A DNA stretch of 64,000 bases from Patescibacteria group bacterium (GTDB lineage Bacteria > Patescibacteriota > Microgenomatia > UBA10105 > UBA927). Where the stretch lies: contig JBMOPU010000033.1 in assembly GCA_049322955.1 (NCBI GenBank), forward strand, positions 128,784-192,783, given 5' to 3'. The translations under genes were made by a program, and so were the position numbers. Positions 33,609-41,232 of the stretch are shown here, piece by piece. The notes beneath the pieces are model-generated. The model made no database searches and had not been told where the DNA came from. It worked only from the letters and a program-made list of their open reading frames with translations. Position 1 is the stretch's first letter. Each line of letters opens with the position of its first letter.

Positions 33609-34067
33609 ATGGAAGAAGATACAAACCAAACAAAAACAACGTATTATGAAGCCGTAGGTCGCAGAAAGAATGCAACCGCACGGGTGAGACTGTATGTCGT
33701 CAAAGATGAGTCGGTGGTTATCAATGGGACGACGGTTGCCAAGGGCGACATGATTGTCAACGGCAGACCCGCCGAAGCGTATTTTCCCGGTGAAATCGAC
33801 AAGAAAGTATATCTTGAGCCGTTTAGAACCACCAACACGATCGGTAGATTTGCGGTGAGTGTCCATACGGTCGGTGGCGGGCTTGCGGGACAACTCGGTG
33901 CGACGTTACAGGGAATTTCCCGTGCACTTGAAAAGACGGATAAAGAGAAGTTCCGTCCGATCCTGAAGAAACGCGGCTTCATGACGCGTGATTCCAGAAA
34001 GAAACAACGCATCAAGGCAGGATTTGCTCACAAAGCGCGTGCTCGCAAGCAATCTCCGAAGCGATAA
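33609..34067 (+). CDS. rpsI: 30S ribosomal protein S9
   Basis: S9-family sequence ending in …KARARKQSPKR. Confidence 0.95.
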   Translation: MEEDTNQTKTTYYEAVGRRKNATARVRLYVVKDESVVINGTTVAKGDMIVNGRPAEAYFPGEIDKKVYLEPFRTTNTIGRFAVSVHTVGGGLAGQLGATLQGISRALEKTDKEKFRPILKKRGFMTRDSRKKQRIKAGFAHKARARKQSPKR

Positions 34068-34074
34068 GGTGGTC

Positions 34075-34154
34075 TCGGGACGGAAACGAGTTTCCTTCCC
34101 GATGTGGCGACAGGCAATGCCTGCGGAAAACCGCATCTGCTCTTCTTTCCTTTT
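34075..34154 (+). other. structured element copy A. It has a bulged hairpin with a C/U mismatch (34075-34102), a second hairpin (34111-34123) and a pyrimidine tract CTGCTCTTCTTTCC (34137-34154). It is a candidate terminator module or small RNA.
   Basis: Read directly: tcggga-c-ggaaa-cgag-tttcc-t-tcccga, then caggc-aat-gcctg, then ctgctcttctttcc. It is homologous to the copy at 40947-41025, with compensatory changes between copies. Confidence 0.45.
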
Positions 34155-34216
34155 ATAGCGCGGATATCCTATTGGTCGGGAAGTAGTACTGCTCTTTTTC
34201 CCTCAGCATGAACGTA

Positions 34217-34810
34217 CTATTTTTTGGCGCGTTCAAGGAAGTCGTTCAGAAGCGTTTGTTGTTCGTTGTCCGTAAGCGGAGTCGGAGTATTGTCATATAC
34301 CCGTTGTTTGGTGATTTCCCATAACAATATCGCCGTGGCGACCGATACATTGAGACTCTGCACAAATCCGCGCATAGGAATTTTGAGCACGGTATCGGCA
34401 CTCTTACGCATGACATCTGAGACCCCGGCATGTTCGTTGCCGACGATAACGGCAAGCGGTGTTTTGGGATCGTGATACCGTTCCAATGAAACGGCACCCT
34501 CGGTAAGTGCGGAAACAACGATACGATATTTTGCTTTTTTCAACGCTTCAATACATGCCTGTGCGGATGAAAACACCGTAAAATCCAACCATTTATTCGC
34601 GCTTGAACTCGTTGCCTTTCCGATGCGTTTGGGATTATACGGCGTCTCTTTTTCGAAAATAAACCACACCTGTTGGATACCCATTGCCTCGCATGTACGC
34701 AGTATCGCCGCCGCATTATGCGGATCATGAATATCTTCAAGTACCACGACCACCCCAGCCTGTCGGCTCCGTACCACGTCCGTAATCCTTTGTAATCGTC
34801 GTTGTTCCAT
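34217..34810 (-). CDS. SpoU/TrmH-family (SPOUT) RNA 2'-O-methyltransferase
   Basis: SPOUT motifs (…AVIVGNEHAGVS…, …QSLNVSVATAILLWE…). Start taken at MEQRRLQRI. The track start at 34849 is an alternative. Confidence 0.7.
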   Translation of the reverse strand: MEQRRLQRITDVVRSRQAGVVVVLEDIHDPHNAAAILRTCEAMGIQQVWFIFEKETPYNPKRIGKATSSSANKWLDFTVFSSAQACIEALKKAKYRIVVSALTEGAVSLERYHDPKTPLAVIVGNEHAGVSDVMRKSADTVLKIPMRGFVQSLNVSVATAILLWEITKQRVYDNTPTPLTDNEQQTLLNDFLERAKK

Positions 34811-34923
34811 AATGGGAATAAAAAGCTGAGGGCAATCCCACAACAACAATGAGGGTATAAGTGTTTGAATGCGAAGTCAAGCGAATGGCGTATCGTATGA
34901 AAGATGCCGTACTATAGAGGTAT

Positions 34924-36366
34924 ATGCGACAACGTACGAAAATCATAGCCGTCGCGTTAAGAATCGGCTTACTTTTTCTCAGCATCGCGGTAACGATAGT
35001 GGTGTGTGAATCCGTATTGCGAGGAGCTTCGGTCATTGCGGGTGCAAAGATTACATCGCGTATCCATACCGATACCGCCGACTTTGTTATCCTCACGCTG
35101 GGCGAGTCAACAACGCAGGATACCACCGGGCATACCTGGCCGCTCCTCCTCGAAAAACGACTTTCTCAGGCATATCCGAACCGTTCCATACGGGTTATCA
35201 ATAAAGCTATCCCCGGAACAAATACGAGTGTATTAGTGGGGAACCTTCCCGCACAGATTACCGAGTACCAGCCGGATGTGATTGTGAGCATGATGGGCAT
35301 AAACGATCAGTATGAGGCGACATTTCCGGCAAGTGTGTATATCCCCGATAAGGATACTACCCCGTGGCTGACCGTAAAGTTTTTTCGTATGACGGTACGA
35401 TATCTTTCCCTGCTGATTGCTGAAGCCCGTGACTTTTATCACTCACCCGATCCGTACGTGTTAAGTCAAAAAGCCGATATGTATCGGATAAACGGCGAGT
35501 ACGAACGTGCGGAACGGTATCTCCGACGATCGATTACTCTTGAGCCAGATAATCCCGAGCATTTGATGCTTTTGGCGATTCTCTATAGGGATATGTCCCG
35601 CAACCGTGAAGCCGAATATACGTTACTTACCGCAAAGCTAATCGCCCCGACTGCAGACGGCGTCTATGTCGAGCTTGGCAACTTCTATCGGGATAATGGA
35701 AACCATATGCTCGCTGAGGAGATGTACAAAACGGCATTGCTTCTTAATCCGCAAAACGGACTTGCCTATGATGCGTATGGGATGCTTGCTTCGTGGTATC
35801 AGGGGGATATGGCGAAAGCGAGGGAGTTATATGAGCAGGGAATCAGGTATTATCCGACCATGATTTCTCCGTATTTTGAACTGGCGGATATATATATTGC
35901 GGAGAATAATATCGGGAAAGCGAAGGCATTATACGAAAAAGTGCTTTCAGTTGAACCGAATAGCACACTGGCAAAACGCGGCCTTGCGAGGGTAGAAGGT
36001 GAGGTAATGGGCGACAGTAGCACAAACGAACAATCGCCCGGATCGCTGTTTTCCCCTATGACCGTCAAAAATTATGGAAAACTACTTGCGATCGCGAGTG
36101 CCCGACGCATTCCCGTAATTGCGGTACAGTATCCGTTACAATCGGCAGAAGAACTGCGGTCGGTGATTACGGGCTTAGCGGATTCTTTCAGTGAGGTGAC
36201 GGTAGTAGGAAATGAGGAAAACTTTCGGGATTTTTTGCAAAGGGGCTCGTATGATGATCTTTTTTCCGATCATTTCGGCGGCAATTTCGGTCACACGACC
36301 GAAAGAGGAAGCGAGCTTATCGCCGCCGGCGTTGCGCGTACGATAGAGACGATACTCAAGAGATAA
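34924..36366 (+). CDS. membrane-anchored SGNH/GDSL-family hydrolase with a TPR-repeat insertion of about 200 aa between catalytic blocks III and V
   Basis: Block I ILTLGESTT (Ser nucleophile). Block III MMGINDQ. Block V DHFGGNFGHTTERG (Asp/His). TPR repeats lie between them (…YRDNGNHMLAEEMYKTALLLNPQNGLAYDAYG…). Confidence 0.6.
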   Translation: MRQRTKIIAVALRIGLLFLSIAVTIVVCESVLRGASVIAGAKITSRIHTDTADFVILTLGESTTQDTTGHTWPLLLEKRLSQAYPNRSIRVINKAIPGTNTSVLVGNLPAQITEYQPDVIVSMMGINDQYEATFPASVYIPDKDTTPWLTVKFFRMTVRYLSLLIAEARDFYHSPDPYVLSQKADMYRINGEYERAERYLRRSITLEPDNPEHLMLLAILYRDMSRNREAEYTLLTAKLIAPTADGVYVELGNFYRDNGNHMLAEEMYKTALLLNPQNGLAYDAYGMLASWYQGDMAKARELYEQGIRYYPTMISPYFELADIYIAENNIGKAKALYEKVLSVEPNSTLAKRGLARVEGEVMGDSSTNEQSPGSLFSPMTVKNYGKLLAIASARRIPVIAVQYPLQSAEELRSVITGLADSFSEVTVVGNEENFRDFLQRGSYDDLFSDHFGGNFGHTTERGSELIAAGVARTIETILKR

Positions 36367-36425
36367 CAGCGCACGATCCCGCTAAGCGGGACGAACATTC
36401 GACTCCACCATGGACTTTATGCTTG

Positions 36426-36498
36426 TCGGGGCGACACGATTTGAACGTGCGACCACACGACCCCCAGCCGTGTGCTCTACCAACTGAGCTACGCCCCG
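36426..36498 (-). tRNA. tRNA-Pro (anticodon GGG)
   Basis: Hand-folded cloverleaf. Acceptor is C1-G72 with A73. D-arm is GCTC/GAGC. Anticodon stem is CACGG/TCGTG with loop CTGGGGG. T-arm is GCACG-TTCAAAT-CGTGT. The 3' CCA is not encoded. Confidence 0.85.
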
Positions 36499-36516
36499 TC
36501 TTCGTAATTCGGACCT

Positions 36517-36564
36517 CATTCACTTTGGGACGAAACCTACGGTTTCTTCCCAACGATCTTCCCT
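36517..36564. repeat. direct repeat copy 1 (48 nt) in the tRNA-Pro/recA divergent intergenic region. It contains the bulged hairpin 36525-36553.
   Basis: cattcactttgggacgaaacctacggtttcttcccaacgatcttccct. It is identical to copy 2. Confidence 0.85.
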
Positions 36565-36595
36565 TAATAGGAAAGATTATGGAAGAGATAACCTC

Positions 36596-36643
36596 CATTC
36601 ACTTTGGGACGAAACCTACGGTTTCTTCCCAACGATCTTCCCT
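36596..36643. repeat. direct repeat copy 2 (48 nt, period 79 nt). It contains the bulged hairpin 36604-36632.
   Basis: 48/48 identical to copy 1. The flanking (t)aatagga is also shared. Confidence 0.85.
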
Positions 36644-36832
36644 AATAGGAGTCGCGAACTATTCAGCTTCCTATCCCACGTTCGCGACAGATACATTATA
36701 ACCAGTCTTTATGTGGACTGTTCCAATATATCTTTATCGATCCTTGTATTCTATCATTTATTGTGTAAAAATGGGAAAGATCCTGCAAATACCGCAGGTC
36801 TGCCCCAATATTATTTCCCACAGGAGGTACGT

Positions 36833-37867
36833 ATGGCACAGGACCAAAAACTTCAGGCGATTCGTCTTGCGATGGAGACTATCGAAAAACAATACGGCAA
36901 AGGATCCATCATGAAGCTCGGCGACAAAAACAATGTCAAAGACGCCATTGATGTAGTTCCCACGGGAATCTTACCGCTTGATCTCGCCCTCGGAGTGGGC
37001 GGCGTGCCAAAGGGAAGAATCGTCGAAATTTACGGACCCGAAGCATCGGGCAAAACGACCGTATGTCTTTCCATCATTGCCGAAGCACAGAAGGCGGGGG
37101 GAGTGGCGGCGTTTATTGATGCCGAACATGCACTTGATCCCCAGTGGGCGGAAGTGTTGGGCGTGAAACTCGACAACCTGCTTATTTCTCAACCCGATAC
37201 CGGAGAACAGGCGCTTGAGATTGCCGAGACGCTTATCCGAAGCGGCGGTATTGACGTTATCGTCATTGACTCGGTGGCGGCGTTGGTGCCGCGTGCCGAA
37301 ATAGAAGGTGAAATGGGTGACAGTATGATGGGAGTGCATGCCCGCCTTATGTCACAAGCCTTACGAAAACTCACGGCAGTCATCGCAAAATCAAAGACGA
37401 TCGTTATATTTACCAATCAGCTCCGTCAGAAAATCGGTGTCATGTTCGGTAACCCCGAAACGACGACCGGAGGGATGGCGCTCAAGTTTTATGCCAGTAT
37501 CCGCATGGACAGCAGAAAGATCGAAACGATCAAAGACGGCGATAAAGTCATCGGAAGCAGGCATCGGGTACGGATTGTCAAAAATAAGGTTTCTCCGCCG
37601 TTTAGACTTGCCGAGTATGACGTCATGCATGACGGAATCTCCCGTGAAGGAGCAATCCTTGATGTCGGCGTAGAGCAGGGGGTTATCAGCAAATCGGGCG
37701 CGTTTCTCAAGTACGGCACCCAAATGCTCGGTCAGGGAAAGGAAGCGGCAAAACTATTCCTCAAGGAAAATCCCAAAGTATTTAAAGAGATTTCCGAAGC
37801 GATCTGGAAAGCGGTGAAGTCCGGCCACGCACAAGCCAAGGTTGCCGTCACCGAAGACGAAGAATAA
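36833..37867 (+). CDS. recA: recombinase RecA
   Basis: Walker [10 protein letters not shown] and L1/L2 loops. AGGAGG Shine-Dalgarno sequence at 36823-28. The track ORF start at 36713 was rejected. Confidence 0.95.
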
Positions 37868-40946: not shown

Positions 40947-41025
40947 TCGAGACAAAACCTACGGTTTTTTCTCGACGCGGAGCGGGCATAGCCCGCGTAA
41001 CGCTGCCGCTGCTCTTTTTCCCTCA
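40947..41025 (+). other. structured element copy B. It has a bulged hairpin with a C/U mismatch (40947-40975), a second hairpin (40982-40996) and a pyrimidine tract CTGCTCTTTTTCCCTCA (41009-41025).
   Basis: tcgaga-c-aaaacc-tac-ggtttt-t-tctcga, then gcgggc-ata-gcccgc. Compensatory substitutions relative to copy A preserve both helices. Confidence 0.45.
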
Positions 41026-41232
41026 ATACGCAAGCAAGAAAAATATTTATTTTCTTTATTGGATTGTCGGGACAATCCAAAATGTTTATGTGTTGCGATT
41101 TAGATTGTTATACTGCGATGTACTAAATGATAGGTTGACAGGACGCGCTGTATCTTTTACATTGCCTCGTAGAGATTGTTGCAACAATCCCTTAATAAAA
41201 ATTTCTTGTCCTAACCCTCTGCCCAAAAGGAG

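Follow-up and report, generated by a model that had tools for sequence, protein, structure and literature searches.

Two identical hairpin copies between tRNA-Pro and recA of a Patescibacteria genome belong to a widespread, apparently undescribed structured family and most likely lie in a tRNA leader

In the genome of a Patescibacteria group bacterium (Genome Taxonomy Database lineage Bacteria; Patescibacteriota; Microgenomatia; UBA10105; UBA927; assembly GCA_049322955.1), a tRNA-Pro(GGG) gene on the minus strand and recA on the plus strand are divergent neighbors, and the intergenic region between them holds a perfect direct repeat, which is the subject of this work. The stretch analyzed, hereafter the window, comprises 64,000 nt of contig JBMOPU010000033.1 (positions 128,784 to 192,783 of the forward strand), and all coordinates refer to it. 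As shown by a repeat search, two 48-nt copies that are 100% identical lie 79 nt apart from start to start between these two genes, as an earlier reading made from the sequence alone (the sequence-only reading) had described them. The copies resemble each other over about 55 nt if one indel, (T)AATAGGA, is allowed. Each 48-nt copy contains one hairpin, formed by 6 bp, a C x T mismatch (C x U in RNA), a further 6 bp and a 3-nt loop; the hairpin had been correctly recognized in each copy, but not its shape, as the supposed bulge is a mismatch. The 29-nt core of this hairpin, TTGGGACGAAACCTACGGTTTCTTCCCAA, occurs exactly twice in the window against 0 occurrences expected from 100 shuffles. The proposal that these hairpins belong to a family was also borne out, since the window has four members (34075, 36525, 36604 and 40947), none of them on the minus strand.

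Comparison with related genomes revealed that the number of copies at the tRNA-Pro/recA locus is variable (L-numbers denote the loci or contigs compared with the window). L001, an independent assembly that encodes an identical RecA and shows 99.19% identity over 4.4 kb, has two copies, which differ from each other at 3 of 48 positions; the metagenome contig L123, with 97% identity over 6.9 kb, has a single copy; and L073, a syntenic contig of a metagenome-assembled genome (MAG) with 83-85% identity, has at least three, in an array that is partly masked. The perfect identity had been attributed to either a recent duplication or a strong constraint. Since one, two and at least three copies are found at 97, 99 and 84% identity, respectively, it is better explained by recent duplication or homogenization than by constraint, and the perfect repeat taken alone is an ordinary recent duplication. 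An assembly artefact is unlikely as the origin of the repeat, because these independent assemblies of close relatives have the same array. Furthermore, 8 of the 36 differences between the window and L001 fall inside about 145 nt of the repeat region (36497-36640 of the window, 97-240 of L001), a divergence about 7-fold that of the flanks; the region may be under relaxed constraint or hypermutable, or it may have undergone gene conversion by other copies. Downstream of 36738, L001, L073 and L123 all keep the promoter-like region of recA and its 5′ untranslated region (UTR), and the segment 36651-36700, with a further hairpin (stem 2) and a TATAAT box, occurs only in the window and L001 and is missing from L123 and L073. 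On the other side of tRNA-Pro, an indel of about 1.6 kb (window 34766-36373) adjoins the tRNA gene and holds a TPR/SGNH-like gene of 480 aa (34924-36366), which L123 (97%) shares with the window and the syntenic L073 (84%) lacks.

The sequence-only reading had also proposed that the repeat is a duplicated operator or cis-regulatory RNA element controlling recA, an explanation that we now regard as highly improbable. Its support came only from the location in the tRNA-Pro/recA intergenic region and from the palindromic shape of the hairpin. An operator is typically a palindrome that overlaps or abuts the core promoter and is conserved in presence and number upstream of orthologous genes, but the repeat ends at 36650, 94 nt before the -35-like box of recA at 36744, and the orthologous recA upstream regions, whose comparison had been suggested as a check, have 1 (L123), 2 (window and L001) or at least 3 copies (L073) while the recA promoter and 5′ UTR are conserved, which weakens the operator idea. 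In addition, the hairpin is found at 115 or more unrelated loci with no link to recA, and within one genome compensatory changes keep the pairing and not the sequence. A scan with a single SOS-box consensus, GAAC-N4-GTTC with at most one mismatch, gave no match in 36400-36900, near recA, and its window-wide count was below chance.

The hairpin family is large. A scan of one genome per species with the pattern GRGASRAAACCNNNGGTTTYTTCYC yielded at least 115 loci, compared with about 2 estimated by chance, and the hosts among the matches listed are nearly all Saccharibacteria/Saccharimonadales, Gottesman-, Levy- and Roizmanbacteria, Peribacteria/Peregrinibacteria and unnamed Patescibacteria, all referred to here as members of the bacterial candidate phyla radiation (CPR). 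The family consensus, GRGAC-RAAACC / GGTTTY-T-TCYC, is a hairpin of 12-13 bp that has a 3-nt loop, a single conserved mismatch and a pyrimidine tail behind it. Both repeat copies fit this definition, with 53.9 bits in the covariance model R1, reverse orientation upstream of tRNA-Pro and a tail that tracks the stem. In an alignment of 105 hairpin copies, 98.2% of the cells are paired, and four pairs covary (AU/UA/GC/CG), the observed value being reached in 0 of 500 shuffles; G·U is nearly absent (3 of 416 variable cells). The four window members differ at three stem positions, each changed on both sides; therefore, it is the pairing that is kept and not the sequence. Rfam 15 gave no family except tRNA, whether at the gathering threshold, at E≤10 on 36350-36850 or at E≤1 on five related loci, and a literature search by topic and by sequence strings found no relevant description of the hairpin family, although publication elsewhere is not thereby disproved. 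Thus the family is widespread, structured, not in Rfam and apparently undescribed.

Two variants were distinguished. In V1, found in Microgenomates and including the repeat copies, the hairpin is followed by AACGATYTTCCCT, and single copies add stem 2 and an ATTATA box; stem 2 is the promoter-proximal hairpin usual in single V1 modules upstream of other tRNAs, and its layout with TATAAT recurs in V1 modules of other loci. In V2, to which the window members 40947 and 34075 belong (Table 1), the order is hairpin, ATCG, a GC-rich hairpin that varies, and CTGCTCTTTTTCC(C)T. The element at 40947-41025 looks like the terminator of rny. Downstream of it, a non-coding block (41040-41170) is conserved in L045, L113 and L073, whose genomes are 77-83% identical, and includes, besides a promoter-like site (TTGACA/TACATT), a hairpin at 41059-41080, TTGGATTGTCGGGACAATCCAA. 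A very similar hairpin, GAGACGAAACC NNN GGTTTCTTCCC, then a CCCCTTCTTCCC-type tract, was observed in GC-rich non-CPR sequences, namely L117-L121 (IMG/VR contigs) and L115 (a Terriglobia MAG); L120 and L121 have the upstream motif GCGATTCTCCCACTGAGA in common. Several records are titled 'uncultured Gammaproteobacteria bacterium' (L004, L007-L009, L023, L034, L044, L051, L053, L055, L057, L073, L077, L084, L088, L090, L094, L095 and L106). By BLAST, four of them (L073, L095, L009 and L090) showed 77-85% identity to the window or to Gottesmanbacteria MAGs, and the remaining ones have the CPR-type element and tRNA contexts in common; these titles are probably wrong. From this similarity, Gottesmanbacteria-type genomes are the nearest to the window, which most likely comes from that CPR lineage.

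Table 1. Features of the tRNA-Pro/recA intergenic region and the two V2 members of the window (R1, covariance model; L-numbers, loci or contigs compared)
Feature	Position	Strand	Basis or remark
Forward V2 member, 8 nt past stop codon of ORF (open reading frame) 33609-34067	34075..34205	+	R1; ortholog in L073
Parts of the 34075 member	hairpin 34075-34102; GC hairpin ~34107-34134; tails 34135-34150, 34189-34205 (CTGCTCTTTTTCCCTCA)		
tRNA-Pro(GGG), 5′ end toward repeat	36425..36498	-	ARAGORN; Rfam tRNA match 61.4 bits
26-nt spacer, hairpin base to tRNA +1, AGTGAATGAGGTCCGAATTACGAAGA on minus strand	36499..36524	-	same in L073, L036, L009
Repeat copy 1, 48 nt; hairpin H1 36525-36553 and tail GATCTTCCC	36517..36564	.	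R1, 53.9 bits
Small hairpin H3, ATCTTCCCT / AGGAAAGAT	36556..36577	-	read from sequence; in minimum-free-energy fold
Small hairpin Ha, ATGGAGG..CTTCCAT on minus strand	36579..36598	-	in minimum-free-energy fold
Repeat copy 2, 48 nt; hairpin H1 36604-36632 and tail GATCTTCCC	36596..36643	.	R1, 53.9 bits
Hairpin 'stem 2', GTCGCGAAC ... GTTCGCGAC	36651..36688	-	sequence and fold
TATAAT, -10-like, 6 nt upstream of stem 2	36695..36700	-	read from sequence; inferred
Promoter-like site of recA, TTGTAT, 16 nt, TAAAAA	36744..36771	+	inferred from sequence; conserved in L001, L073, L123
Promoter-like site TTCCCA, 18 nt, TG-n-TAGAAT, aimed at repeat and tRNA-Pro	36748..36777	-	conserved in L001, L073
recA, ATG at 36833	36833..37867	+	Pfam RecA_N/RecA_C on identical protein
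Forward V2 member, 7 nt past rny stop codon	40947..41025	+	R1; orthologs in L045, L113, L073
Parts of the 40947 member	hairpin 40947-40975; GC hairpin 40978-41008; tail CTGCTCTTTTTCCCTCA 41009-41025		

The genomic contexts of the family follow a rule of orientation. With the element written GRGAC arm first, this arm is always on the gene side among the matches listed. Of the 124 elements among these matches, 54 adjoin a tRNA encoded on the other strand, and the distance between its 5′ end and the base of the hairpin is mostly 3-7 nt (26-27 nt in the lineage of the tRNA-Pro studied here), and two elements (L002 and L020) lie 7 nt past the 3′ end of a same-strand tRNA; the other two possible arrangements of tRNA and element were found in none of the 124. 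About 20 of the listed elements stand 5-30 nt past the stop codon of a same-strand ORF, the ORFs in question being ordinary genes such as rny, era, ftsI, S1 and a sortase-like gene. Further elements are located directly upstream of 23S or 5S rRNA genes, or in 23S insertions just before the 23S resumes, all antisense to the written orientation, and a few occur upstream of ftsX, ssb, clpC and rpoD, at 19-70 nt from the start codon. Upstream of tRNAs, forward copies come no closer than 66 nt, where they precede the promoter of the tRNA itself. Forward elements often come with a GC hairpin and the tail CUGCUCUUUUUCC. When the sequence is read in the direction of the stable RNA, the reverse elements have clear -35/-10 boxes upstream of them, the distance being 20-38 nt to AGGGAAAAAGAGCAG in V2 and 3-20 nt to stem 2 in V1, and therefore the element is expected to be transcribed as leader. 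Matches of the R1 model outside the scan seeds showed the same contexts again.

Some of these contexts deserve mention in their own right. In Saccharibacteria, several 23S genes have insertions that end 3′ in a reverse element (L025 5050-5215; L082 3787-4476, with three copies; L017, L038, L046 and L069), and the 23S sequence restarts 2-4 nt past the hairpin; the insertion of L025 has a degenerate forward copy in its 5′ part, so that one long stem could form. Forward arrays of two or three V1 units occur in the 3′ UTRs of era and ftsI (L018 2295-2520; L095 5076-5330; L105 7641-7760), followed by a separate terminator; thus, tandem arrays are not specific to the tRNA-Pro locus. The tRNA promoters of Saccharibacteria have a conserved tACCCCTGTT after the -10 box, at the transcript start, with hairpin or no hairpin (L003, L011, L030, L037, L047 and L074, and the element-less tRNAs in L015, L020 and L050).

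The forward orientation of the repeat copies on the plus strand brings in another explanation, according to which they act as a terminator or insulator that stops read-through from the gene 34924-36366, across the antisense tRNA, before the recA promoter. Elsewhere forward members come after stop codons, and here the plus-strand gene ends at 36366 with the antisense tRNA alone intervening, which is consistent with this role. Nevertheless, we consider it improbable. The repeat copies have an A/U-rich stem with a mismatch and lack, as V1 elements, a GC-rich stem or a U-run (their tail is AACGAUCUUCCCU), and they lie antisense to a tRNA, unlike the window members 40947 and 34075, with their GC hairpin and CUCUUUUU after stop codons. 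The V1 arrays after era and ftsI (L018 and L095) have a separate terminator behind them and so are probably non-terminating, and L073 has three or more copies but no upstream plus-strand gene. Finally, 41 tRNA-adjacent elements have, across the tRNA from them, 20 convergent and 21 co-oriented neighbors, which shows no enrichment, and on the same count we rejected reverse copies in general as terminators of a convergent gene beyond the tRNA. A pairing between leader and trailer was likewise discarded, given that the duplexes of the leaders with the 120-nt stretches behind 40 tRNAs had energies that did not surpass those of shuffles (mean z -0.35) and that no inverted copies were seen on either side of genes.

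The sequence-only reading had mentioned the tRNA gene as the other possible target of the repeat, and this link held, as the element stands in the usual leader orientation between minus-strand promoter-like sites and tRNA-Pro. The RNA of the minus strand from 36499 to 36745 folds at -94.5 kcal/mol (z -7.2), compared with -73.9 kcal/mol (z -5.4) for the plus strand. The small hairpin H3 is fully paired on the minus strand, with one G·U pair, which becomes a C x A mismatch on the plus strand; similarly, Ha has a G·U pair on the minus strand and an A x C mismatch on the plus strand. Because of the minus-strand promoter-like sites, the stronger minus-strand fold and these G·U pairs, both copies most likely lie in a tRNA-Pro leader of about 190-240 nt. 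Next to this, the promoter-like sites of recA and of the minus strand overlap back-to-back (36744-36777) and make up a compact, bidirectional promoter region, whose conservation extends to L001 and L073.

Therefore, the reading that we favor, with reasonable though far from complete confidence, is that the repeat is a recently duplicated family module in the tRNA-Pro leader, with a role at the RNA level, and that recA is not regulated by it. We hypothesize that a module of about 79 nt, a member of this large family of structured elements of CPR/Patescibacteria genomes, was gained by a recent tandem duplication or recombination. In the family, forward elements would act at stop codons and tRNA 3′ ends, where the long variant (hairpin, GC hairpin, CUGCUCUUUUU) looks like an intrinsic terminator, and reverse elements, placed between a sigma-70-type promoter and the 5′ end of a tRNA, 23S, 5S or, in a few cases, an mRNA, would be transcribed in the leader. 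Leaders of tRNAs are removed by RNase P. At the present locus, transcription would start from one or both minus-strand promoters, at about 36700 and/or about 36750, and pass through both copies into tRNA-Pro, and the leader would fold into hairpins and probably be cut off by RNase P at the 5′ end of the tRNA. The module would then be a gene-proximal element of RNA structure, processing or stability with two alternative pairings, whose copy number itself is probably not under selection.

Several observations weigh against this interpretation. The strand of transcription, the 5′ ends, the processing and the function are all inferred from sequence; the stem-2/TATAAT segment is missing in L073 and L123, so that the promoter actually used is uncertain; the scarcity of G·U in the hairpin would also fit a DNA-level structure or the use of both strands; and a strand test on 55 elements, by fold energy and G·U counts, revealed no bias to either strand. 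In addition, of about 80 other tRNAs in these loci that come first or stand alone, only about 7 have the element, the tRNAs without it having their promoter 15-25 nt upstream. Since so few tRNAs have it, there is no general need of the element for tRNA expression, and it could be a tolerated insertion, resembling an insert of about 90 nt in a short leader.

This leads to the explanation that the family is a tolerated or selfish palindromic insertion, similar to miniature inverted-repeat transposable elements (MITE), repetitive extragenic palindromes (REP) or BOX, kept only where it is harmless, that is, in removable tRNA and rRNA leaders (in the non-terminating orientation), at rRNA insertion sites and at gene 3′ ends, the repeat copies having no function of their own. 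The presence/absence and copy-number polymorphism among genomes 97-99% identical, the element's occurrence at about 10% of the other tRNAs, the copies inside 23S genes, the roughly 7-fold excess of divergence in the repeat region over its flanks and the tandem arrays of 2-4 units at several loci are all in agreement with it. However, the hairpin is near-invariant over CPR lineages that differ at the class or phylum level, unlike REP, BOX and Correia elements; orthologous copies persist at about 77-85% genome identity and change by compensatory substitutions; the matches listed (115 loci) include no transposase or REP-associated tyrosine transposase (RAYT) gene and no inverted copies flanking genes; and the covariation between stem and tail, described below, indicates selection on structure. 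On balance, we regard the insertion hypothesis as unlikely, though a serious competitor of the leader module.

In V1, the tail is a copy of the final 7 nt of the 3′ arm, and its sequence changes with pair 6 of the stem in 33 of 33 cases: with A-T at this pair the tail is GATTTTCC (21/21), with G-C it is GATCTTCC (11/11), and the single A x C case has C in the tail. The tail of the repeat copies, GATCTTCCC, agrees with their G-C at pair 6. Since the tail copies the 3′ arm, it can substitute for this arm in pairing with the 5′ arm, and on the minus strand the purine copy, AGGGAAGA, can substitute for the 5′ arm, from which two alternative folds result. In V2, the tail is instead the mirror image of the 3′ arm, that is, the 5′ arm with G replaced by C and A by U. 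The canonical 5′ arm GAGACAAAACC goes together with the tail CTCTTTTTCC; GAGACAAACC with CTCTTTTCC (six copies, at least five of them in loci that also have canonical copies); GAGACGAAACC with CTCTTCTTCC (L006, L044 and L055); GAGAGAAAAC with CTCTCTTTC (L018); GAGGAACAACC with CTCCTTTTCC (L029); GGGAC... with CCCTTTTTCC (Peribacteria); and GAGAGAC... with CTCTCTTTTT (L010). In a permutation test on 43 distinct stem/tail combinations, which are not phylogenetically independent and whose tail is of low complexity, the mirror relation scored 7.26 for the own tail against 6.82 +/- 0.09 for permuted ones, with 0 of 5000 permutations as high, and the direct-copy relation scored 6.74 against 6.51 +/- 0.09 (p 0.009).

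Judging from these covariation patterns, the mirror relation of V2 could not arise by Watson-Crick pairing or slippage, and it is what a parallel pyrimidine third strand (U·A-U, C+·G-C) would require. This feature of a pyrimidine-motif triple-helix element is present in the long variant, including the member at 40947, and absent from the two repeat copies, which show a direct copy. We therefore put forward, as a tentative proposal that still goes well beyond the leader reading, an undescribed RNA module across several CPR lineages that would form a triple-helix 3′ cap in its long form and a two-state tRNA-leader switch in its short form. In the long forward form, if termination occurs in the U-run, the last ~8 nt, CUCUUUUU, would lie as third strand in the major groove of the A-U-rich hairpin, and in the short form the tail would be an alternative partner of one hairpin arm. 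In this view, a single mechanism of processing or stability for the ends of tRNA, rRNA and mRNA would include both the conserved mismatch and the gene-proximal orientation.

To our knowledge, most CPR bacteria have not been brought into culture, and next to nothing is known of the signals that govern their transcription, termination and RNA processing. A common module at tRNA, rRNA and mRNA boundaries would therefore give a handle on CPR transcription and processing, and it would aid genome annotation. If the mirror covariation does reflect a triple helix, it would be, as far as we know, a new way to protect the 3′ ends of bacterial RNA. The analysis also removes a false lead on recA regulation in organisms without obvious SOS control and shows how an ordinary repeat can lead to a family conserved near base for base over distant CPR lineages.

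The nearest known systems are short imperfect intergenic palindromes, often located at gene ends and transcribed with their neighbors, such as REP and the bacterial interspersed mosaic elements (BIME) that they form, the pneumococcal BOX and the Neisseria Correia elements. The CPR family resembles them in being an imperfect extragenic palindrome with a variable number of tandem units, a conserved stem mismatch and a position at gene ends. REP/BIME are known by clusters in alternating orientation, by a RAYT (TnpA-REP) gene flanked by copies and by restriction to a species or genus, whereas the CPR arrays have all their copies in direct orientation (window, L036, L073 and L095); among the matches listed (115 loci, partial genomes) no inverted pair flanks an ORF, and the sequence is common to CPR classes. 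Unlike REP/BIME, BOX and Correia, the CPR core is conserved across very distant lineages, its orientation is tied to the gene and its tail covaries with its stem. As for intrinsic terminators, the forward long variant (40947-41025) has a GC hairpin and then CUGCUCUUUUU just after a stop codon, but the family differs from them in having a hairpin of conserved sequence before the GC hairpin, a tail of fixed motif and not a plain U-run, and a reverse use in leaders.

The arrays of tandem hairpin-like units recall the clustered regularly interspaced short palindromic repeats (CRISPR) and the arrays of TIGR (tandem interspaced guide RNA) in CPR genomes. TIGR units have 8-12-nt repeats and 9-nt spacers (PMC12045711). 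We rejected an array of either kind, as the geometry of TIGR is different, the inter-repeat segments are themselves repeated (L073 and L095) and unique spacers are absent; the repeat, whose neighbors are tRNA-Pro and recA, has no cas or tas gene beside it. A search of plasmids with the repeat region returned tRNA matches only. A hammerhead or other known self-cleaving ribozyme was also rejected, no CUGANGA core being seen by eye and no Rfam match at E≤10.

Other parallels come from stable RNA. The nut-type boxB-boxA sites of rrn operons and of lambda serve antitermination, with boxA in sense orientation in rRNA and tRNA leaders. In pre-rRNA, boxB, boxA and boxC have been described (PMC10250234). 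The V2 element is similar in that a hairpin is followed by a motif with GCUCUUU, the boxA core, near rRNA and tRNA genes, but this motif is antisense to the tRNA, 23S or 5S in all adjacent cases and V1 has CGAUCUUCCCU instead; thus, a boxA/nut site was rejected because it would lie on the wrong strand. Intervening sequences are well known in bacterial 23S rRNA, and rRNA insertions have been reported for CPR bacteria. Like these, the reverse element forms the 3′ end of the Saccharibacteria 23S insertions, with the mature 23S restarting directly after it; unlike them, the element is also found upstream of tRNAs and after ORFs. MALAT1 and PAN RNA are examples of triple helices at RNA 3′ ends, formed there by the element for nuclear expression (ENE) and an A-rich tract. 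The V2 3′ pyrimidine tail mirrors the pyrimidine arm of the hairpin, and its triples would likewise sequester the transcript 3′ end; in contrast to ENE, the tail would be the Hoogsteen strand on an A-U-rich hairpin, in bacteria and beside a terminator, and the proposal is drawn from sequence covariation, while the repeat copies show the direct-copy and not the mirror relation. As far as these comparisons indicate, the family is set apart from all of these systems by the cross-phylum conservation of its core, its gene-proximal orientation, its reverse use in leaders and the covariation of its stem and tail.

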